A stretch of 64,000 nucleotides of DNA from Bacteroidales bacterium UBA5536 (GTDB lineage Bacteria > Bacteroidota > Bacteroidia > Bacteroidales > F082). The notes beneath the pieces are model-generated. The model saw only the letters and a program-made list of their open reading frames with translations. It was not told the DNA's origin and did no database searches. The position numbers were made by a program, and so were the translations under genes. Below are positions 3,768 through 15,559 of this stretch, piece by piece (position 1 is the first letter of the stretch; every line of letters starts with the position of its first letter). Where the stretch lies: assembly GCA_002426795.1 (NCBI GenBank), contig DINQ01000011.1, positions 41,525 through 105,524 of the forward strand, in the 5' to 3' direction.

Positions 3768-4234
3768 AAGTCCGATGCCGATAGTTATCGGCAGGAGACC
3801 GGAGACGGAAGATGCACGAACAGTCATTATACCCGATGCCTGCTATTGACCCGACACTTTGGGAAGGCTCCCGAAGGCAAAGGGTAAGATAATAATTAAA
3901 ATGTGGCTTCGAGGGCCTCAGCCACCGAGTGTTGCGATGCCTGAGGCTCCCGAAGGCAGAGGAAAAAAGATGTCTGTTGCCGGAAGTCTTTAGCCAGCAT
4001 GGATAATTTGTCAAAGTCTACGGAACCCCTTATATCCCGCACACAGGAAGTCTAACACTGCTATTTCCATATGGTGCTTTATCAAAGGCATATGGTGCTT
4101 TGTTAAAGACAATTGATGTAGAAACTGTTTTATTTGCTGCGTCCGTTTTGAAACACGCCACCTGCCCGCCGACAATTGACCACAAATCCAATTCATATAA
4201 GGTCAGGTTTTTGCCGGGTGCTGTCTCTCCTGTT

Positions 4235-4549
4235 TCATATACAGGCTTGCAGAAGTCATATGAAGCCTCCGCAAACACGTATGGAGTCTCCGCAAACTCA
4301 TATGAGACGTTTCCATTTCCATAATTGGGAATTCCTATGTCGTATTGTGCGTCCGCCATGTCGTATTGTGCGACCCCCATCTCGTATTTTACGTCCCCCA
4401 TCTCGTATTGTGCGTCCGCCATGTCGTATTGTGCGTCCCCCAACTCGTATTGTGCGTCCCCCATCTCGTATTGCGCGTACCCCATGTCGTATGAAGCGAT
4501 TTCAAAGCCGTATGCTGCTTCCGCAAAGTCATATTTCCCATTTCCATGG
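4235..4549. repeat. 21-bp tandem repeat, about 15 phase-locked units (core of 7 near-identical units at 4340-4486, unit TCGTATTGTGCGTCCCCCATC)
   Basis: Unit starts read at 4235, 4256, 4277, 4298, 4319, 4340, 4361, 4382, 4403, 4424, 4445, 4466, 4487, 4508 and 4529. Two more in-phase copies (CATATGGTGCTTT) sit at 4068 and 4089. ORFs are open in three frames on both strands across it (4030..4485 on the minus strand; 4176..4553 and 4325..4612 on the plus strand). Confidence 0.85.
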
Positions 4550-4983
4550 ATAAAATCTGGAAAATTCCCAACCTGGGAAGGTTTGGCTAACCTGCCAGAA
4601 AGGAAGGAATGATGAATCGATAGGTGGTTCTCGTCATAATCAGAAGTACAACACCTTTCTTGAACTACTATTTAAACACCACATAAAAAGTGTTGAAATA
4701 TTTTTGCAAAAGCAAAAATATTTTTATTTTTAGGGCATGGAAAAACCAGCGCCCGCTGGTAGCTATCGCCTGTTCTGGGCATGGCGGGGTAAAGGGAAAA
4801 AAAATGAATACCGCTTGCGGTAGGAAATAGTGGTTTCTGTTATTGGAGTGTATTAAACATGCGACTCTGAAACGAATTTGAACTTTTATATGAAAACAAC
4901 TTTACTCAATTTGAAAAAAACACAGAAGAAATGTGATCGAATCTTAATTGGAACACAGGAAAGCGCAAAAATTAATCAGCTAT

Positions 4984-5008
4984 AAAAAAACTCCCACCGA
5001 AGCGGGAG
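4984..5008 (-). terminator. intrinsic terminator of the tracrRNA candidate
   Basis: Minus strand CTCCCGC-TTCG-GTGGGAG (7-bp stem with one G-U pair, UUCG tetraloop), followed by seven T residues. Confidence 0.75.
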
Positions 5009-5057
5009 TATAGGAATAATATCCTTCGGCATATAGCCTTGTTGTGATAAGATTAGG
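4984..5057 (-). ncRNA. tracrRNA candidate (about 74 nt)
   Basis: The minus strand reads CCUAAUCUUAUCACAAC AAGGCUAUAUGCC GAAGGAUAUUAUUCCUAUA CUCCCGCUUCGGUGGGAG UUUUUUU. The first 17 nt are complementary to repeat positions 1-17 except for a central 2-nt U/U mismatch. A nexus-like AAGGC..GCC hairpin, a second hairpin and an intrinsic terminator follow. The 5' end is inferred from the promoter at 5061-5091. Confidence 0.7.
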
Positions 5058-5060
5058 TTG

Positions 5061-5091
5061 CAAACATAAACATTGACATCAATAAAACAAA
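5061..5091 (-). promoter_or_regulatory. Bacteroidota-type promoter for tracrRNA (TTTG-N19-TATGTTTG)
   Basis: On the minus strand, TTTG lies at 5091-5088, then a 19-nt spacer, then TATGTTTG at 5068-5061. This matches the -33 TTTG / -7 TAnnTTTG consensus and spacing. The predicted start falls at about 5053-5057, the first bases of the anti-repeat. Confidence 0.55.
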
Positions 5092-5096
5092 ATAAA

Positions 5097-8000
5097 ATGG
5101 CAAAAAAAGTTTTAGGCCTTGATTTGGGCACCAACAGCATAGGTTGGGCAATCGTTGATAAAGAAAATCAAAAGATCTTGGATGCAGGAGTCCGGATATT
5201 CCAGGAAGGAGTAAAAAAAGATACGATAGGAAAAGGAGACAAGGAAGAAAGTAAAAACTCCGAACGCAGACAGCATCGTCAGGCACGCAGACTCAATTTT
5301 AGAAAACGAATTCGCAAAGCACATTTACTTAAACTCCTGATCGATAATCAAATGGTTCCTCTAACTATCGAGGAATTAAACAAATGGCGGTATTGGAACA
5401 AGAATGAAAAAAGTAGCGGCAAAATATTTCCACATTCAGAAGCTTTTGTCAATTGGCTAAGAATGAATCCATATCTGCTAAGAAAAAAAGGCTTGCATGA
5501 GGATTTAACCCTATTCGAGTTCGGCAGAATACTCTACCATTTTATCCAAAGGAGAGGCTTTATGTCCAATCGAAAGGGAAAAGCAAAAGATACTGGGGTG
5601 ATATATAAGGGAAAAGAGAACATGGATGGTGTTGACGAAACACGTGAGTTGTTGCAAAACAGAACCCTTGGTGAAGCTTTATTTGAAATACATCCAAAAG
5701 AAGGAGAGGCGTTTTTTATTCGAAAAGATATTAAAGGTAAAGAAGTAAGAGTAAGAGCCAGGTATACTTTGCGAGAAATGTATGTGGATGAATTTGATCG
5801 GTTATGGGAAAAGCAGTCTGCTCGACTAGGCCTTACTGATAAGATGGTGAGTATAAGAAGGAAGGTTTTCTTGAAAGGTACAATTAATCAAAAGAGAAAC
5901 CAGAATAAGCTCAATCATTTGATTGACAGATACGGAAAAGGAAATGTCATAGTCTATGATGATTCCATTGGCGTTTTGGAAAAGAAACCTTTAAAAGAGG
6001 TTTTGGCAGGAAAAATAGAATCAACTGAAGAAGGTGTGCGATTCAAAAGCAACGAGAGTGTGCTTTTTTGGCAGCGCCCTCTGCGTTCGCAAAAATCTTT
6101 ACTAAGTAAGTGCAGCTTCGAAAGCCAAAAGATTTTTGACAAGAAACTTGACAAGTGGATTGTTATTGGCAAAAGCCCTGCCTATACATCACATCCAGAT
6201 TTCGAGTTGTTTAGAGCCCATCAATTCATCAACAACATCAAAATTGGGAAAGCTAACCATTTGCTCAACGATGAACAAAGAGCAGATGTCCTTGACCTGA
6301 TTAATTCTAAGGATAAGGCGTTTGAATTCAAGGTGATTAAAAAAGCACTGAAATTACCACATGAGTTTTTTAATTACGAGGATGATTTTAAGGTTGCCGG
6401 CAATAAAACGCATGCCAGTGTTGCATCTGTATTCAGTAAAAAAGATTGGGAAGAAATTAAGGAGGAGATATGGCACGACCTGGTTTTTTATGAAGACAGT
6501 GATTTGCTTTCAGCAAAGTTGATGAGACGGTATCATCTTGATGAGCAATCAGCAAATAAGCTATCGAAAATCGAGTTAGAAGAGGGTTATGCAAGTTTAT
6601 CGTTAAAGGCAATTAGAAACATACTGCCTTTTCTTGAGATGGGTTATCGGTACTCTACAGCTGTTATTCTGGGCGGTGTAAAAAATTCATTTGGCGAGCG
6701 GTGGGAAAGGTTTAGTATTGTACATGACGAAATAATACGAGATGTTGTACGCATAACGGAAAACGAAAAACACAAAGAATTTGAGCTGGTTGAGCAGGTG
6801 AAATTGTATTTGTCTGATCCTGAAAACAAATATGGATTTAACAAAGATGACAAAGCATTTAGCAAACTCTATCATCCCTCTCAGGCTATTGAAAAGAAAG
6901 CACTTAAAACACGCTTATCTGAAATCGAAAATCTGCGAAATCCGATTGTTCAAAAGGCATTGTATGAAATGCGGAGACTAATCAATTCCTTGCTCGACCG
7001 CTATGAAGAACCCAATGGTGATGGGTTTAGATTTGATCGTATTCAGGTCGAATTTGGACGCGAGTTGAAAAACAACAAAAAACGAAGACAGGAAATGTCG
7101 ATTCGAAACCGAGAGAATGAAAATAAAAATGCATTGGCAAGGGAACGACTATCAGAATATGGGTTGCGCCCCAGCAGAAACAACATCACAAAATACTTGC
7201 TATATCAGGAAATAGAGCAAAAAAATGGAATTGTGCAATGTCCTTATACTGGACGAACAATTAGTATCAGTGACTTGCTGGGCAATGAAAACCGTTACCA
7301 GATCGAGCACATTGTACCACTTAGTGTTTCATTAGACGACAGCTATGGAAATAAAACTCTTTGCGAATCGAATTTTAACCGTGAAAAAGGGGAATTGACC
7401 CCCTATGAATTCTATCAACGCAATAGTTCGCGTGAACTGTGGGCCGCAAGCAGCTGGGAAGAAGTTGAACAACGAGCCTATAAATTACTGCCATATAGCA
7501 AAGCCAAGCGGTTTACGATGATGAAAAAACCAGGTGCAGACGATTTTATCCAGCGTCAGCTGAACGACACTCGCTATATCAGTAAAAAAGCAGCTGAAAT
7601 GCTTAGTGAAATATGTGATGATGTGAGGGTGTTGCCAGGGCAGCTCACTGCTGAGTTAAGACGGCTATGGGGGCTAAACCATTTGCTGCGTGATCCATTG
7701 CTAAAATCAAAAAATATAACAGTATCAACTGATGGCGAACTGGAGCATTTTGTGGTTTTTGACGAAAATGGTCAGGTAAAACAACTTTTACCTGCACAAA
7801 ACCAAAAACCCTCCAGTGGTTTTCCTGTGCTTTGCATGCCAGGTTATATAGATAAGAATGGGTTGTTTTCAGAAGAAAAGCGCTATAAGCAGCTTCGATT
7901 TGAACAAAACAAAACGGGATTTAAAGAGGGTAAATATTGGGCAAAAACGGAACTTAGCAATCCGCTTGATTTTACATTGATATTCACTGCGCGGCCTCCT

Positions 8001-9701
8001 TTAAGCAATAAGTACATAAGCCTAAGAGGACAAGTTAGTAAGGGAAGGTTTACGCACGATTCCATCAAGCAGAAAATAGCTGCAAATGTAGAAGATGGTA
8101 CTTATTGGGTAAGTTTTCCGGTGAAAAACTTCCAGCTGGTTCCTGCATCACGAGATCAAAAGCCTGCACCCGGCACAAAGGAAATTCTGCTCTTTGGCAA
8201 AGTGAATGGAGGCTTGTTTAGTAGCTATATTTTCGAAACCACCACCGACTTGCCTGATGGTCGCTACTGGCTGATATTAGAACCGGATACAACTACACCA
8301 GAATTTTTGAAAGCCCGCAATATACCTGAATCAAAAGCTGATAATGAGGTGTTTGTTGAAGGCGTAGTAGATGATTTGGGCAAATTTACCTCAGACCAGG
8401 ATCCTGATTTCAGCTTTAAAACTTCTCATGCCCCAGGCAAATATTTTGTTCGGTTTAGAGCTATGAAGACCGAGGGCTATTATCCACTACAAAATGACCC
8501 TCCTGTATTTGGTAAAAATGAAAATCTTGCTCTGGCATACACATGGGTAGATAAAGCCACTGGTGAAATCAAAATAGATGTACAAAAGAATCGTGAAGAC
8601 CAGCGTCACCATGCATTGGATGCCATTGTGGTTGCCATGAGTGAACTTAGCTATCTGAACCAGTTAAGTCGCTATTCAGGTCAAATCAAAGACTGGGAAC
8701 GTGGCAAGGATGAAAGACCTGTTTTTGATTTGCCCTGGTCTGAATTCTCTGATGCTGTAAATACTGCCATTGAACAGATTCTTGTGTCTTATGCACAAAA
8801 CAGAAAGGTGGTAAGCAAGATTAGTAAAATGGTTAATAAAGGGGGTAGAAGCTACAAAAGCTCTGGATTTGCAGCCAGAGGCCGTTTGCATAGAGAATTC
8901 TATTTTGGTCAGCACCCCAGACCTATTCTGCATCAAAAAAACCCGCAAACAGGAGATCTTTTATTTGAGAAAGATAAGTATGGAAACAAGCAGTACTATT
9001 ATCATATCCGAAAAGCGGTAACCACTATCCAGAACAACAAACATGTAGATAAGATCGTGGACGAAGCTATACGGCTATTGATAATCAGTAGACTTGAAAA
9101 GGAATACCATATTGATACCACTAAGCCATACAATATACCTTCCGATTTTTTTTACGACAAGGATAAAAAACCCAATTTATTCCTTCCAAATAAAAACGGC
9201 CATCCTGTGCCTGTAAAAAAAGTACGGATGCGCGAGAATATTGGGAATGCGGAACAACTAAAAAGTGATGTCAACCAATGGGTAAATCCCTACAACAATC
9301 ACCATGTGGTGATTTATGAAGACTTTGAGGGCAATTTACAGGAACAGGTAGTATCCTTGTGGGAGGTAGTCGAACGACTTAATCAGGGATTGAAAACTGT
9401 TCAATTGCCCGTGAATGGCAGACGAATAGTGGAAACCCTGCAGGAGAATGAGATGTTTTTGATTGGCCTGCCTCAAGATATGCGAGATAATCTGGATAAA
9501 AACTTGAATTCTGTCACAGCGCTTTCGCCTTACTTATATAGGGTGCAAAAAATATCGAGTATGTATTATACATTTCGTCAACATTTGGTTTCAAGTGTTT
9601 CAACGGAACAAGGTGAATTGAGCATAAGAAGTTTCAAAGCGTGGGAGGAGCTTAATCCTATTAGAGTTATAATAGATCAAACCGGAAAAATCAGTTTTTA
9701 G
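5097..9701 (+). CDS. cas9: CRISPR-associated endonuclease Cas9, type II-C, large variant (1534 aa)
   Basis: RuvC-I MAKKVLGLDLGTNSIGWA. Arg-rich bridge helix ERRQHRQARRLNFRKRIRK. RuvC-II IQVEFGRELK. HNH YQIEHIVPLS...GNKTLC...NREKG. RuvC-III DQRHHALDAIVVA. The ATG at 5097 is preferred over the TTG at 5073 used in the ORF track. Confidence 0.97.
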   Translation: MAKKVLGLDLGTNSIGWAIVDKENQKILDAGVRIFQEGVKKDTIGKGDKEESKNSERRQHRQARRLNFRKRIRKAHLLKLLIDNQMVPLTIEELNKWRYWNKNEKSSGKIFPHSEAFVNWLRMNPYLLRKKGLHEDLTLFEFGRILYHFIQRRGFMSNRKGKAKDTGVIYKGKENMDGVDETRELLQNRTLGEALFEIHPKEGEAFFIRKDIKGKEVRVRARYTLREMYVDEFDRLWEKQSARLGLTDKMVSIRRKVFLKGTINQKRNQNKLNHLIDRYGKGNVIVYDDSIGVLEKKPLKEVLAGKIESTEEGVRFKSNESVLFWQRPLRSQKSLLSKCSFESQKIFDKKLDKWIVIGKSPAYTSHPDFELFRAHQFINNIKIGKANHLLNDEQRADVLDLINSKDKAFEFKVIKKALKLPHEFFNYEDDFKVAGNKTHASVASVFSKKDWEEIKEEIWHDLVFYEDSDLLSAKLMRRYHLDEQSANKLSKIELEEGYASLSLKAIRNILPFLEMGYRYSTAVILGGVKNSFGERWERFSIVHDEIIRDVVRITENEKHKEFELVEQVKLYLSDPENKYGFNKDDKAFSKLYHPSQAIEKKALKTRLSEIENLRNPIVQKALYEMRRLINSLLDRYEEPNGDGFRFDRIQVEFGRELKNNKKRRQEMSIRNRENENKNALARERLSEYGLRPSRNNITKYLLYQEIEQKNGIVQCPYTGRTISISDLLGNENRYQIEHIVPLSVSLDDSYGNKTLCESNFNREKGELTPYEFYQRNSSRELWAASSWEEVEQRAYKLLPYSKAKRFTMMKKPGADDFIQRQLNDTRYISKKAAEMLSEICDDVRVLPGQLTAELRRLWGLNHLLRDPLLKSKNITVSTDGELEHFVVFDENGQVKQLLPAQNQKPSSGFPVLCMPGYIDKNGLFSEEKRYKQLRFEQNKTGFKEGKYWAKTELSNPLDFTLIFTARPPLSNKYISLRGQVSKGRFTHDSIKQKIAANVEDGTYWVSFPVKNFQLVPASRDQKPAPGTKEILLFGKVNGGLFSSYIFETTTDLPDGRYWLILEPDTTTPEFLKARNIPESKADNEVFVEGVVDDLGKFTSDQDPDFSFKTSHAPGKYFVRFRAMKTEGYYPLQNDPPVFGKNENLALAYTWVDKATGEIKIDVQKNREDQRHHALDAIVVAMSELSYLNQLSRYSGQIKDWERGKDERPVFDLPWSEFSDAVNTAIEQILVSYAQNRKVVSKISKMVNKGGRSYKSSGFAARGRLHREFYFGQHPRPILHQKNPQTGDLLFEKDKYGNKQYYYHIRKAVTTIQNNKHVDKIVDEAIRLLIISRLEKEYHIDTTKPYNIPSDFFYDKDKKPNLFLPNKNGHPVPVKKVRMRENIGNAEQLKSDVNQWVNPYNNHHVVIYEDFEGNLQEQVVSLWEVVERLNQGLKTVQLPVNGRRIVETLQENEMFLIGLPQDMRDNLDKNLNSVTALSPYLYRVQKISSMYYTFRQHLVSSVSTEQGELSIRSFKAWEELNPIRVIIDQTGKISF

Positions 9702-9704
9702 GTC

Positions 9705-10595
9705 ATGATAAGGCGAACCATCTTTATCAGTAATCCTGTCCGTTTGTCACTCAAAGATCAGCAAATGAAGATTGAGGTAAAAGAGAGCGGACAACAAACC
9801 TCCATACCTATTGAAGACGTTGGTTTTTTGGTAGTTGAAAACATGCAAGCCAGTGTGAGTGTGCCGTTATTGGCTGCATTGAATGAACAGAATGTGGGTG
9901 TGATTTTTTGCAATGCAAGCCATATGCCTTCTTCAATGTTGCTTACGCTGGACAGCCACAGTGTGCAAACTGAAATTTTTGCCTTACAGCTGAATGCCAG
10001 CGAACCGTTGAAGAAACAACTCTGGCAGCAAACTATCAAAGCAAAAATCCGAAATCAGAATTTTCATCTTTTGTCAAGAGGTATCGAAGCGCCTGGTTTG
10101 GCCAATCTGGTGAAACAGGTGCAAAGTGGCGACACCACCAACCGTGAGGGTATGGCCGCGCGTATCTATTGGCAAAGTTTGATGGGCAAAGGTTTTGTGC
10201 GCGACAGAAACGGTAGCCCTCCCAATTTTGTGTTTAATTATATCTACATTGTACTGCGTGCTGCTGTAGCACGTGCATTGGCAGGCTCTGGGCTGCTTCC
10301 GGCGATGGGAATCCACCATCACAATCGATATAATAGCTTTTGTTTAGCAGACGATATCATGGAACCTTACCGTCCCTTTGCAGATCAATTGGTGATGGAA
10401 CTGATTGAAGAAGAACCTGAACTGACAGTCTTGGAAACAGTGCACAAAATGAAGCTTCTAAAGTTGTTGCAGGCTGATGTAAGCACAGGAAAGCAAAAGC
10501 GGCCATTACTACTTGCGTTGAGTGAAACCACAGCATCACTTGCCCGGTGTTTCAGGGGTGAATCGAGAGAAATTACTTATCCCAAAATAAATTGA
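9705..10595 (+). CDS. cas1: CRISPR-associated endonuclease Cas1 (type II)
   Basis: 296 aa, starting 3 nt after the cas9 stop. Its length and position between cas9 and cas2 are typical of type II Cas1. Contains the acidic/His C-terminal core (GIHHHNRYNSFCLADDIMEPYRP). Confidence 0.93.
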   Translation: MIRRTIFISNPVRLSLKDQQMKIEVKESGQQTSIPIEDVGFLVVENMQASVSVPLLAALNEQNVGVIFCNASHMPSSMLLTLDSHSVQTEIFALQLNASEPLKKQLWQQTIKAKIRNQNFHLLSRGIEAPGLANLVKQVQSGDTTNREGMAARIYWQSLMGKGFVRDRNGSPPNFVFNYIYIVLRAAVARALAGSGLLPAMGIHHHNRYNSFCLADDIMEPYRPFADQLVMELIEEEPELTVLETVHKMKLLKLLQADVSTGKQKRPLLLALSETTASLARCFRGESREITYPKIN

Positions 10596-10937
10596 TTGGT
10601 GCAATGTACCCGACTAAATGCGTATCAGGTTATGTGGCTCTTTGTATTTTTCGATTTGCCGGTTACAACCAAAAAAGAACGCAAAGCGGCTACGCTATTT
10701 CGAAAAAAATTGGAAAAAGACGGATTCTATATGATGCAGTTTTCAGTTTATACCCGACATTGTGCCAGTCGAGAAAGTGCAGATGTACATACTAAACGTG
10801 TAAAAAGTGAGATACCAGAATATGGACAAGTTAGCATATTAATGATAACAGATAAACAGTATGCAGAAATATTGAATTATTTTGCACACAAGATGATTGA
10901 GCTGCCATCTGGAGGGCAACAATTAGAACTGTTTTAA
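10596..10937 (+). CDS. cas2: CRISPR-associated endoribonuclease Cas2
   Basis: 113 aa. RLNAYQVMWLFVFFDLPV is the typical type II Cas2 N-terminal beta-strand with the catalytic Asp. It abuts the cas1 stop. The start is TTG at 10596 or GTG at 10599. Confidence 0.9.
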   Translation: MVQCTRLNAYQVMWLFVFFDLPVTTKKERKAATLFRKKLEKDGFYMMQFSVYTRHCASRESADVHTKRVKSEIPEYGQVSILMITDKQYAEILNYFAHKMIELPSGGQQLELF

Positions 10938-11070
10938 TTGTATATTTGTTCTTTGAAATACTGTAGAAAAAAAAAAGTGATTTCTGAATCTTCACTTCTT
11001 GTTTGACATATGTTTTTTTTGATATAAAACAGTCTGAAAGCCTTGTAAATTAAGGCTAATGAGTCGGCAG
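10938..11070 (+). promoter_or_regulatory. CRISPR leader (133 nt, AT-rich) with a candidate -7 box TATATTTG at 10941-10948
   Basis: It lies between the cas2 stop and the first repeat, and the degenerate repeat is at the opposite end of the array. There is one exact TAnnTTTG match but no properly spaced -33 TTTG. Confidence 0.55.
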
Positions 11071-13739
11071 GTTGTGATTTGATTAGGAATTCAAGCTTAA
11101 GACATTTGAAATGTATAGGCGGCGCTGCTGGTTTTAGTTGTGATTTGATTAGGAATTCAAGCTTAAGACATTTGCAATGGCACAGGGCAGGTGCAATACA
11201 ACGTTGTGATTTGATTAGGAATTCAAGCTTAAGACATTAATCAGCACATTAATAAAAATAGCCGGTGAGTTGTGATTTGATTAGGAATTCAAGCTTAAGA
11301 CATTAATGAACGACCTAAAAAAACTACTCAACAAGTTGTGATTTGATTAGGAATTCAAGCTTAAGACATTAAAAGTACACCAGCACAACAAAACCGAACT
11401 GTTGTGATTTGATTAGGAATTCAAGCTTAAGACATTCTTTACGGGGCGCTTGCTTCCGGGTGCCGAGTTGTGATTTGATTAGGAATTCAAGCTTAAGACA
11501 TTACAACTTTGAAATTAACCTTCCATTAACCCGTTGTGATTTGATTAGGAATTCAAGCTTAAGACATTAAAACTTTGCAAAATGAAATTGCAAGCCTAGT
11601 TGTGATTTGATTAGGAATTCAAGCTTAAGACATTAATGCAAAAATTATCATTCGTCTCGAACTTGTTGTGATTTGATTAGGAATTCAAGCTTAAGACATT
11701 GGACAAGTAGGCATTGAGTATGACATTATGGTTGTGATTTGATTAGGAATTCAAGCTTAAGACATTTGATGTCGCGCATGAATGGGATACGTCTGGGTTG
11801 TGATTTGATTAGGAATTCAAGCTTAAGACATTTCCGGCTCTTTTTACTTGAGCATATTCACGGTTGTGATTTGATTAGGAATTCAAGCTTAAGACATTTT
11901 TTTTTCTAAGCTCGAGGAGTACATGTGTTGTGATTTGATTAGGAATTCAAGCTTAAGACATTCCAGAACCGAACGCGACGGGCAGCACGTTTGTTGTGAT
12001 TTGATTAGGAATTCAAGCTTAAGACATTGTTGGTGCTTTGCGCGCTGATTCGATAAGGGTTGTGATTTGATTAGGAATTCAAGCTTAAGACATTATCATT
12101 TTTTTCGTGCCACAGCCCGACGGCGTTGTGATTTGATTAGGAATTCAAGCTTAAGACATTAGAGAGTATTTGCAAAATTGTCCGTTCAGGTTGTGATTTG
12201 ATTAGGAATTCAAGCTTAAGACATTTATGCTTACTTCATCGAGCGGTTTGATTTTGTTGTGATTTGATTAGGAATTCAAGCTTAAGACATTGGTGCGGTC
12301 GAAACGGTTGAGGCGCTGCAGTTGTGATTTGATTAGGAATTCAAGCTTAAGACATTCCGCCAATCCACATCAATGCTTTTTGCCACGTTGTGATTTGATT
12401 AGGAATTCAAGCTTAAGACATTTCTTTACTGTCTGCAAAATATTGTTTAATAGTTGTGATTTGATTAGGAATTCAAGCTTAAGACATTAGACTGCCAGCG
12501 CGTTACAATCGAAACACAGTTGTGATTTGATTAGGAATTCAAGCTTAAGACATTCCTGAGTTTCATAAGGCACTTAACGCTATTGTTGTGATTTGATTAG
12601 GAATTCAAGCTTAAGACATTCTCGATCGCTTCAATTGCCGCGTGGTTGAGGTTGTGATTTGATTAGGAATTCAAGCTTAAGACATTAATCAAAACAATTT
12701 TGCTGTGGTTTTTAGTTGTTGTGATTTGATTAGGAATTCAAGCTTAAGACATTCTTCCGATTTTACCACCTTACGTAGCAGGGTTGTGATTTGATTAGGA
12801 ATTCAAGCTTAAGACATTTACGATTTGGAAAACGTTCGACTGCTGCCTGTTGTGATTTGATTAGGAATTCAAGCTTAAGACATTCATTTCGTCGTCGGCC
12901 TGCTTACCGTTCATGTTGTGATTTGATTAGGAATTCAAGCTTAAGACATTTTAAGCGTGTAGTATCATGGAAGAGTTAAGTTGTGATTTGATTAGGAATT
13001 CAAGCTTAAGACATTGTGGAGGTGATGAAGAGCTAACCACACCCCGTTGTGATTTGATTAGGAATTCAAGCTTAAGACATTTCAGAACCATGCCACATGC
13101 ACTCATGCCGTGTTGTGATTTGATTAGGAATTCAAGCTTAAGACATTCTGGTAGAATGAATTTAATGTCCATAACCTGTTGTGATTTGATTAGGAATTCA
13201 AGCTTAAGACATTCTGTTTTACTTCGTGTTGTTGGCTCATTAGTTGTGATTTGATTAGGAATTCAAGCTTAAGACATTAAACATGATCGCAACCATGAGG
13301 AAAACCGCGTTGTGATTTGATTAGGAATTCAAGCTTAAGACATTCAGCCGCCGACAACACCAAAACCGGAACCAGTTGTGATTTGATTAGGAATTCAAGC
13401 TTAAGACATTTCCTATCGATCACGCTCTTATGCACAAATGGTTGTGATTTGATTAGGAATTCAAGCTTAAGACATTGTATTGGAAAGGCTTGTGAGTTCG
13501 GTTGCTGTTGTGATTTGATTAGGAATTCAAGCTTAAGACATTTCGGTCCATTTTTCGTTGTAAGCGATAGTGTTGTGATTTGATTAGGAATTCAAGCTTA
13601 AGACATTAATAGAAGCACCCACCAAAAGCTGGCAGAAGTTGTGATTTGATTAGGAATTCAAGCTTAAGACATTTCAAGTTCGATGCTGTTCGTGATCTCG
13701 TGAGTTGTGATTTGGTTAGGAAGTCAAGTCTACTTCCCT
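11071..13739 (+). CRISPR. CRISPR array: 40 identical 36-nt repeats GTTGTGATTTGATTAGGAATTCAAGCTTAAGACATT plus one degenerate terminal repeat; 40 spacers
   Basis: I located all 41 repeat starts by reading, from 11071, 11137 and 11203 through 13638 to the degenerate copy at 13704. Spacer lengths are 32 of 30 nt, 6 of 29 nt, 1 of 28 nt and 1 of 31 nt. Orientation follows from tracrRNA complementarity and the terminal degenerate repeat. Confidence 0.98.
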
Positions 13740-15559
13740 AATCCACTGATCCTGCTGGCATTCCAGGTTCCGGCTCCGGTTGTACCGGCGCCATCTGGTC
13801 CATACGTCCAGCTCCCTACGCCTACACCTGAGCTGTAGAAAGTACCGCTATAATTGAATATATTCTGCGGTGTTGTCCATGCTGCATAGCCATCATCATT
13901 CAACACACCAATCCCGTAATCGCCCCAGCCTAACAGGTCATGACCCTGTATGCCCATTTCGGACGTCATATTGTAGGGGGCCGAAAATCCCTCGTTTACA
14001 AGTGTACCGGTCATCGAAAATGTCCAGGTTCCATCATAAGGACCTGTCTGAACGCTGTTTGCTTCCTGGGTGATTGTAAAGCTTTTATCCGCAACCTGGA
14101 TGGTGCCCGATCTTTCTTCGGTCAGTCCGTTTGCCAGTACCGAATAGCTGACTTCACCGTTTCCGCTGCCCGATGCCCCGTTTGTGACGGTGATCCATTC
14201 AGCCACCGACACAGCCGTCCATGCACAGCCATTGTCTGTTGATACCGCAAAGGAGCCGCTTCCTCCGTTTGCAGCTATCTGCACAGAACTCGCAGATAAC
14301 CCAAAGGCACAATCAGCAGCTGACAACACATTGCCAAAGGCTTCGCCAAGTGAAGTGCAGCCGTCGATCAGGCTTTTGATTGCGCCGGACGCGTCAGGAT
14401 AAATCTGGTCCGTCACAATGCCACGCAGCATCTCTTCGATACGGCCCACGCCTTGCTGAACAGCCTGAGTGGCAGCCTGGCTATTCACATTGGCAAGGGC
14501 AGCTCCCGTCACAACCTCTAGCCCGCCAGTTCCAATTGTAGCATACAAGATGGCTGCAGCAGGCAAGGCCAGTGCAGCTGCAACCGGTATTTCTGCTGCC
14601 AGGCCAGTCAAAGCAATAAAACCAATTGCCACGCTGCCGGCACCAAAGATCACCTTACCTGCCGTATTGATGGCATCGGGCAGTGAGGAAGCCACGCACT
14701 GCATATGGTTGGAGACAGCGCCGTTGTTGATGCCGGCGCCCAAATCGCCCGTAACATTGTAAGCACTTTCGCTACATGGATTATAAAGCATGGCTTTTTC
14801 AGTATGAATCAGGCCAATTTGATCGGATAAATTCGACTCGCTTAGCGTGTAATAGAGTGCCTGTAAAAACCTGTCGCACTGGGCGAGTTGCGAAACACTG
14901 ATGTTTATTTCGAAGCCGTTGATCGTGCCAAAATGATAGGTTAACTGAGGATCGTCGGATGTATTTACCAGCTTATGGAGATCGGCATGCAGTTTTTCGA
15001 GGTTGTTCAGGTTGGCGCCCAAAGTGAAGAGCATATCAGGATTGGCATGCCCGCTGTTGGCAACCTCCATCTGTAGCTGTTTCAGGTAGTTGATCTGTTC
15101 TTCGAGAAAGACAATAGTCGCCTCACCCGGTTTTGCGTTCACGACAGGCAAATCTTTTATGATAAAACTATTGATGATATTGGAGCCACGTTCGATCAGT
15201 GCATTTTTGTCAATGAGTTGCACGTCCACTGTACCTTCAGCAAACTGACCACTTGTGGCATCGACAAAGGGAGGTACAGCCACCACCAGCTTCCCGGCAG
15301 CATTCTGCAAAACAGGCACATCCACTGAATAACCTGCCTGATCCGAAAAACGTACCCAAAGCTGTTCCCCCTCAACAAATCCCACGCCCTGAATGACCAG
15401 CAGCGAAGTTGGTATGGCAGAGTGGCTGCTCATATTTTGAATCCTGAAAGAATTGTCAGGTGGTGTATCGCCATCATCCTTGCCTGCAGGTTTACAGCTG
15501 ATAACGGTTGTTACAACGATGAAAAACAGTGAAACCAAAAAGCCTACATGCGTTTTCAT
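13730..15559 (-). CDS. hypothetical lipoprotein with an internal Gly/Ala-rich hydrophobic hairpin and a BACON-like domain
   Basis: 609 aa. Signal peptide plus lipobox (VISCKP). Hydrophobic stretch GKVIFGAGSVAIGFIALTGLAAEIPVAAALALPAAAILYATIGTGGLEVVTGAALA. BACON-like segment LSASSVQIAANGGSGSFAVSTDNGCAWTAVSVAEWITV...RSGTIQVADKSFTITQ. Confidence 0.6.
   Translation of the reverse strand: MKTHVGFLVSLFFIVVTTVISCKPAGKDDGDTPPDNSFRIQNMSSHSAIPTSLLVIQGVGFVEGEQLWVRFSDQAGYSVDVPVLQNAAGKLVVAVPPFVDATSGQFAEGTVDVQLIDKNALIERGSNIINSFIIKDLPVVNAKPGEATIVFLEEQINYLKQLQMEVANSGHANPDMLFTLGANLNNLEKLHADLHKLVNTSDDPQLTYHFGTINGFEINISVSQLAQCDRFLQALYYTLSESNLSDQIGLIHTEKAMLYNPCSESAYNVTGDLGAGINNGAVSNHMQCVASSLPDAINTAGKVIFGAGSVAIGFIALTGLAAEIPVAAALALPAAAILYATIGTGGLEVVTGAALANVNSQAATQAVQQGVGRIEEMLRGIVTDQIYPDASGAIKSLIDGCTSLGEAFGNVLSAADCAFGLSASSVQIAANGGSGSFAVSTDNGCAWTAVSVAEWITVTNGASGSGNGEVSYSVLANGLTEERSGTIQVADKSFTITQEANSVQTGPYDGTWTFSMTGTLVNEGFSAPYNMTSEMGIQGHDLLGWGDYGIGVLNDDGYAAWTTPQNIFNYSGTFYSSGVGVGSWTYGPDGAGTTGAGTWNASRISGLGK

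Follow-up and report, generated by a model that had tools for sequence, protein, structure and literature searches.

A short tracrRNA gene with its own predicted sigma-A promoter upstream of cas9 in a type II-C CRISPR-Cas locus of Bacteroidales

In the genome of Bacteroidales bacterium UBA5536, a sequence resembling half a CRISPR repeat stands in front of cas9, next to letters that read as a Bacteroidota promoter. This arrangement raises the question of whether a tracrRNA gene can take its promoter from the same captured repeat that supplied its anti-repeat, or whether the promoter is older than the arrangement in which it is now found. A preliminary description of the window, by which we mean the whole stretch of 64,000 nucleotides that was analysed, had read the minus strand as a tracrRNA gene of about 74 nt, and had proposed that the proximal half of a captured repeat serves as the anti-repeat and that its distal half turned into the promoter. 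The letters and positions on which that description was built all hold, including the 15 matches among the 17 nt of the proximal half.

The locus has the organization of a type II-C system (Table 1), in which cas9, cas1, and cas2 are tightly packed, with neither csn2 nor cas4. A 133-nt leader and the CRISPR array follow directly 3' of cas2, and the tracrRNA gene is divergent to the cas9-cas1-cas2 operon, 39 nt upstream of the cas9 ATG. The box TATATTTG in the leader is found ~120 nt ahead of the first repeat and has the identical sequence in the relative L022; no -33 TTTG is present at this box, which is the likely promoter of the pre-crRNA. A promoter on the sense strand of the array repeats themselves was considered and rejected, since the repeat sense strand is devoid of TAnnTTTG, the -7 consensus. 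A tandem array of 21-bp units, at positions 4274-4546, separates the upstream genes from the tracrRNA terminator.

Table 1. Features of the CRISPR-Cas locus and of the predicted tracrRNA gene (positions in the window)
Feature	Position	Strand	Remarks
tracrRNA gene (predicted)	4984..5058	-	anti-repeat and scaffold conserved in 46 relatives, covariation, terminator
Intrinsic terminator	4984..5009	-	8-bp stem (5009-4990), UUCG loop, U7
Hairpin 2 (AGGAUAUUAUUCCU)	5012..5025	-	compensatory changes at 3 of 5 pairs
Nexus AAGGCUAUAUGCC	5028..5040	-	GGC/GCC stem, UAUAU loop; invariant in 41 aligned relatives
Anti-repeat CCUAAUCUUAUCACAAC	5041..5057	-	pairs with repeat positions 1-17
Segment resembling the distal repeat half (TTGCAAACATAAACATT)	5058..5074	+	contains the -7 box
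Putative -7 box TATGTTTG (TAnnTTTG)	5061..5068	-	plus-strand letters CAAACATA
Putative -33 element TTTG	5088..5091	-	CAAA on the plus strand; 19-nt spacer to the -7 box; distance to the cas9 ATG, 6 nt
cas9	5097..9701	+	1534 aa; TIGR01865, E 4.7e-156
cas1	9705..10595	+	
cas2	10596..10937	+	
TATATTTG box in the leader	10941..10948	+	4 nt past the cas2 stop
CRISPR array	11071..13739	+	40 identical 36-nt repeats GTTGTGATTTGATTAGGAATTCAAGCTTAAGACATT, ~30-nt spacers
Degenerate 41st repeat	13704	+	array end distal to cas2

On the plus strand, positions 5041-5057 read GTTGTGATAAGATTAGG and match positions 1-17 of the repeat (GTTGTGATTTGATTAGG) at 15 of 17 nucleotides, with the two mismatches at repeat positions 9 and 10. 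A search of the 64-kb window returned 42 repeat-like matches (1.65 expected by chance), of which 41 belong to the array, and this proximal half is the sole repeat-like sequence outside it. The orientation of the anti-repeat suits an array transcribed from the plus strand, with its degenerate repeat at the far end. The in silico co-fold of repeat and anti-repeat, which the preliminary description had named as a check, gave a duplex of 8 bp, a 2x2 U.U internal loop, and 7 bp. The mismatch behind this loop, TT at repeat positions 9-10 versus AA at 5049-5050 on the same strand, is kept in nearly all relatives, with few variants, which indicates a conserved U.U/U.U internal loop and not a decay of the pairing. 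The bulge-like feature that had been noted in the 17-nt anti-repeat is thus a property of almost the whole family. [quoted passage not shown]

Relatives of this locus were gathered by Cas9 similarity from metagenomes and assemblies, which gave 46 distinct loci with the RNA module. In all of them the same minus-strand module is located upstream of cas9, and its parts follow one order: an anti-repeat of the form ...AUCUUAUCACAA(C/U), the nexus AAGGCUAUAUGCCG, a second hairpin, a terminator of the form CCCNC-UUCG-GNGGG, and a U-tract. Five loci constitute the W-clade, namely this window, L021/L022 (two copies of one relative), L104, L105, and L083, and the Cas9 proteins of these relatives are 80%, 71%, 66%, and ~62% identical, respectively, to the Cas9 of this window. 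Among assembled genome contigs the Cas9 search found one relative only, L021, and the taxonomic neighbours contain distant Cas9s only. The L021 locus (JBFWIF010000103.1), a 7.3-kb contig with a Bacteroidota-type organization, 80% Cas9 identity, and a TAnnTTTG promoter, is filed under a metagenome-assembled genome of Acidaminococcaceae, probably by a binning error or as the outcome of a transfer. In another relative, a second, unrelated array with the 30-nt repeat CTCTTAATCGCACCATTTTGGAATTGAAAC is located just upstream of the tracrRNA gene and cas9 (L046:5-1374).

The folding of the module was evaluated in an alignment of 41 sequences, in which 95.6% of the cells are paired, as compared with 83% in shuffles and 39-49% when the partners were slid, and in which 93 cells carry changes on both sides, as compared with 32 in shuffles. 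Compensatory changes occur at 8 of the 13 variable pairs of the hairpin 2 and terminator helices. Five of the eight pairs of the terminator stem have such changes, and 98% of its cells are paired. Both 3' hairpins covary strongly across the 41 relatives, and the nexus does not vary at all; the nexus, second hairpin, and UUCG/U7 terminator that had been read from this one sequence are thereby real elements of a family. An Rfam scan of positions 4000-14500 gave no match at E <= 1, and this tracrRNA family is absent from Rfam. An anti-repeat to the repeat of its own array, a position adjacent to cas9, and a nexus followed by hairpins and an intrinsic terminator are among the features by which a tracrRNA is recognized, and each of these three is found here. 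Judged by its sequence and conservation, the minus strand at 4984-5058 is a tracrRNA gene, as had been proposed, and the same module recurs in the 46 relatives.

The promoter of this gene was proposed to be TATGTTTG with a TTTG 19 nt upstream. On the minus strand between 4700 and 5350 there are two exact boxes, TATGTTTG and a second one at 4720-4713, already downstream of the terminator of the tracrRNA. Exact TAnnTTTG occurs in the window at 0.0004 per nucleotide per strand, so that an exact box right at the anti-repeat is unlikely by chance. Among the relatives, the RNA strand has an exact TAnnTTTG at a distance of 19-48 nt upstream from the nexus in 37 of the 46 loci; the chance expectation for such a 30-nt interval is ~2%, and the opposite strand of the same interval has an exact box in 2 of 44 loci. 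Most of the relatives without an exact box have a one-letter variant of it. In the W-clade the -7 box is at distance 20 in all five loci, with variable letters at the "nn" positions (TATG, TATA, TATC), and a TTTG with a spacer of 18-19 nt accompanies it in each; in the family as a whole, only about half of the members have the -33 element. The reading of TATGTTTG with its TTTG-N19 as a conserved Bacteroidota sigma-A promoter of the tracrRNA, predicted from sequence, is thus well supported.

The start site was derived from the position of the box and a consensus rule. In the start-site map of Flavobacterium psychrophilum the sigma-A box is located at -12 to -5 (PMC9723704), which would place position +1 here at 5056 +/- 2, on the first bases of the anti-repeat, and would give an RNA of ~73-76 nt. 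The predicted primary transcript would extend from ~5056-5058 to the U-tract at 4984-4990, in agreement with the earlier proposal of a start at the first anti-repeat bases and an RNA of about 74 nt.

The origin of this promoter is a separate matter from its function. According to the preliminary description, what lies upstream of cas9 is a captured repeat, whole and inverted, of which the proximal half is used as the anti-repeat and the distal half has mutated into the -7 box. The segment 5058-5074 scores 8 in a semi-global comparison with repeat positions 18-36, a nominally significant likeness that was noticed post hoc and may include some true homology; its p is 0.001 when compared with all 17-mers of the window, 0.01 when compared with shuffles, and 0.007 once the six promoter letters are fixed. 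The antisense strand of the repeat reads TAAGCTTG, one C-to-T change away from TAnnTTTG, at 4 nt before CCTAATC, which is the matching distance; accordingly, TAAGCTTG is present on the minus strand of every array repeat between 11071 and 13673. In the relative L045 the box overlaps a sequence that aligns to the L045 repeat, and relatives with a longer tracrRNA show that the ancestral anti-repeat spanned most of the repeat. The recruitment of a repeat as an anti-repeat is, moreover, an accepted scenario (PMC6546382).

The closest relatives nevertheless argue against a repeat-derived promoter. Compared with their own distal repeats, L022, L104, and L083 score 3, 4, and 2, and they keep the box at the same place despite having no likeness to those repeats. 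The likeness in this window is created by the C at repeat position 22 and by the ACATT that follows the box, and these letters are genome-specific on both sides of the comparison. The near-box within the repeat is likewise specific to this genome, and the corresponding sites in the repeats of L022 and L104, TAAGCTTC and TAGACTTC, are two mismatches away from the -7 consensus. A captured whole repeat would be recognized by a full-length likeness that goes beyond the promoter letters and is common to relatives, and the likeness at 5058-5074, nominally significant in this genome even with the box fixed, is not shared by L022, L104, and L083. It is probably for the most part due to chance together with the fixed letters of the box, and we regard the derivation of the promoter from a captured repeat as rather unlikely. 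If this derivation were true, a single flipped repeat would have supplied both the guide-pairing segment and the promoter; Bacteroidota could in this way acquire or reset a tracrRNA in a single step, and the repeated switching between short and long tracrRNAs in this Cas9 family might be explained as well.

The spacing of the promoter relative to cas9 also weighs against capture. When the region between the nexus and the cas9 ATG was aligned, the W-clade and its sister clade (L028 and L029) differed by a single clean gap of 19 nt, positioned between the proximal anti-repeat and the box. In both clades the distance from the box to the cas9 ATG is 27-28 nt, and in the sister clade the box is 19 nt further from the nexus, beyond an anti-repeat of 27-29 nt and a short leader. 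Since the box-to-ATG spacing is kept across the 19-nt indel, the promoter looks orthologous and inherited rather than remade from a repeat, and the location of the sister-clade box beyond the 27-29-nt anti-repeat implies that the box predates the short form. The part of the preliminary description in which the distal half of the captured repeat became the promoter is not supported by these comparisons.

In the 46 relatives, the distance between the box and the nexus is bimodal, being either 19-27 nt (short class) or 36-48 nt (long class). Members of the long class have an anti-repeat of 25-30 nt and a leader of ~10 nt. On the Cas9 tree, members of the two classes alternate with each other, so that the 5' part of the tracrRNA has been shortened or lengthened repeatedly. 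From the prevalence of long forms we infer that the 19-nt indel of the W-clade was a deletion.

The explanation that we consider fairly probable is that of a type II-C tracrRNA gene with its own ancestral sigma-A promoter, which a change of ~19 nt moved up against the proximal anti-repeat. RNA polymerase would recognize the TTTG at 5091-5088 and TATGTTTG at 5068-5061 on the minus strand, and transcription would start at ~5056-5058 and stop at the UUCG hairpin and U7 (5009-4984), yielding a product of ~75 nt. The first 16-17 nt of this RNA would pair with the 5' part of each repeat in two helices of 8 and 7 bp around the U.U/U.U loop, and the nexus, hairpin 2, and the terminator hairpin would form the scaffold bound by Cas9. 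The tracrRNA of this window would then be a short-class member of a family in which long forms occur as well, and the ~19-nt change, most simply a deletion of the distal anti-repeat and the 5' leader, would have brought the ancestral promoter to the proximal anti-repeat.

A different primary transcript can also be envisaged, in which transcription starts upstream of 5075, in the region of the cas9 start, and the RNA carries a full-length imperfect anti-repeat that is cut by RNase III, the box at 5068-5061 being a secondary promoter or unused. A hypothetical start at 5078 would add 12 pairs with the distal repeat and lower the co-fold energy to -51.9 kcal/mol, as compared with -44.6 kcal/mol, and the longer duplex would suit RNase III better, for which an interrupted duplex of 17 bp is short. 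Two tracrRNA promoters are known from Streptococcus pyogenes (PMC6546382). Upstream of the hypothetical start, boxes with one mismatch are located on the minus strand at 5095-5088 and 5108-5101, but no exact box is present there. The extra pairing is not conserved in L022, L104, and L083, whereas the conserved exact box with TTTG-N19 indicates the short start in all W-clade loci, and a 17-nt anti-repeat works for the related Ghe Cas9 described below. We consider the longer transcript unlikely.

As to RNA data, positions 4600-5600 are not covered by contigs in either of two RNA-seq runs from the same sample, and two other runs contain fragments of relatives only. In a marine metatranscriptome (X17), a 95-nt contig, which is an assembler product and not a mapping of 5' ends, matches the long-class tracrRNA of a relative (L064:9810-9904). 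It extends from 12 nt beyond the shared anti-repeat, just after the position of the box in the relatives, to the U-tract, and may represent a full-length molecule. As RNA of a relative, it is indirect evidence of expression. The contigs found in X18, X20, and X23 extend beyond both RNA ends and are thus uninformative on the ends of the transcript.

The lack of same-sample RNA-seq contigs over the region might be taken to mean that the anti-repeat and scaffold persist as an untranscribed relic, or that the entire system is inactive. However, standard RNA-seq assemblies usually miss small RNAs. With intact cas genes, 40 identical repeats in the array, and a promoter, scaffold, and terminator that are conserved and match the consensus, a silent relic is very improbable, and we infer that the short tracrRNA is expressed in this organism.

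The position of the tracrRNA promoter may have consequences for the mRNA of cas9. Seven compact loci (this window, L022, L104, L105, L083, L028, and L029) were searched on the plus strand within 330 nt upstream of cas9, and none has an exact TAnnTTTG there. That strand has a single shared near-match, TAGCCTTG, which six of the seven loci contain within the tracrRNA nexus. The predicted tracrRNA promoter (-33 to -7) takes up the space to within 6 nt of the cas9 ATG. Transcription of cas9 probably begins within the tracrRNA gene or beyond it, and the mRNA would then be antisense to the tracrRNA.

With the tracrRNA gene identified, the annotation of the type II-C system of this genome, which apparently works, is complete, and a concrete guide of ~75 nt can be proposed for a large Cas9 that has been little studied. 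At the level of the family, two points were absent from the open-access papers that we searched, namely the conservation of a TAnnTTTG promoter directly upstream of the tracrRNA across the Cas9 family, and the existence of two tracrRNA length classes, with the box ~20 or ~40 nt from the nexus, that were interchanged several times. Both should be modestly useful to CRISPR specialists, and the accepted view of how tracrRNAs work is unchanged by them. The short class also poses the question of whether RNase III is needed for crRNA maturation with a duplex of 8 + 7 bp.

The closest characterized counterpart is the Ghe Cas9 (no. 64, clade IX, 1525 aa) in the catalogue of Gasiunas et al. 2020, Nat Commun 11:5512 (PMC7606464, supplementary file 4). 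It belongs to the same large (~1500 aa) family, a 160-aa fragment being 38% identical to the Cas9 of this window (E 6e-28), and its tracrRNA has the same scaffold, ...UCUUAUCACAAU AAGGCUAUAUGCCGAAGG-hairpin-CCUAUACUCCCGCUUCGGUGGGAGUUU. The Ghe repeat begins with GUUGUGGUUUGAU and keeps the U.U/U.U mismatch, which is also present in the published sgRNA, and the Ghe tracrRNA is of the short class, with UAACUUUG located 3 nt before the anti-repeat. The two systems differ in the repeat from position 14 on and in the letters of hairpin 2. The Ghe sgRNA, composed of 17 nt of the repeat, GAAA, and 17 nt of the anti-repeat, yielded a PAM in a cell-free in vitro assay (PMC7606464), and its activity indicates that a Cas9 of this family can function with an anti-repeat of 17 nt. 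The tracrRNA in that catalogue was predicted in silico and counts the promoter box as part of the RNA, and neither a promoter nor a start site is discussed there. The scaffold sequence was not found in the main texts of papers and turned up only in the PMC7606464 supplement. The tracrRNA family described here is thus already known from the Ghe Cas9 scaffold, though it has no Rfam model.

The type II-C systems of Flavobacterium columnare and F. psychrophilum share with this locus the cas9 family, a divergent tracrRNA upstream of cas9, and a 36-nt repeat, which begins with GTTGTGGTTTGATTAAAGATTAG. The TAnnTTTG grammar is common to both as well, and the nexus and terminator module is found in metagenomic loci with the repeat GTTGTGGTTTGATTAAAGATTAG... 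By contrast, the Flavobacterium tracrRNAs are of the long class, with an anti-repeat of ~25 nt, a leader of ~10-15 nt, and the box 39-42 nt from the nexus. The mechanism of tracrRNA transcription was stated as not determined in the study of F. psychrophilum (PMC10309648).

Parallels are also offered by other II-C systems. The tracrRNA of Campylobacter jejuni is also compact, at ~75 nt. As in the tracrRNA predicted here, its main 5' end is inside a repeat-like sequence, with repeat-like letters upstream of the start (PMC3737331). The C. jejuni gene, however, belongs to another phylum, has a sigma-70 promoter and an unrelated sequence and scaffold, and occupies another position in its locus. In the II-C arrays of Neisseria meningitidis and C. 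jejuni, as far as they are summarized in PMC10309648, the end of the repeat carries a promoter element, which is the same concept; there, crRNAs are transcribed from promoters on the sense strand of genuine array repeats. The box in this window, in contrast, lies on the antisense strand of a solitary repeat-like sequence, and its product would be the tracrRNA.

The origin of anti-repeats has been modelled by Faure et al. 2018, RNA Biol 16:435 (PMC6546382), who proposed that an anti-repeat is a recruited repeat that later diverged and gained bulges. Under their model, the sequences that flank the relocated repeat would supply the promoter and the terminator, whereas in the preliminary description of this locus the repeat itself had supplied the promoter. 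Comparison of the tracrRNA genes of the W-clade, its sister clade, and the wider family suggests that the data fit a promoter derived from the flanks (PMC6546382) better than one derived from the repeat.
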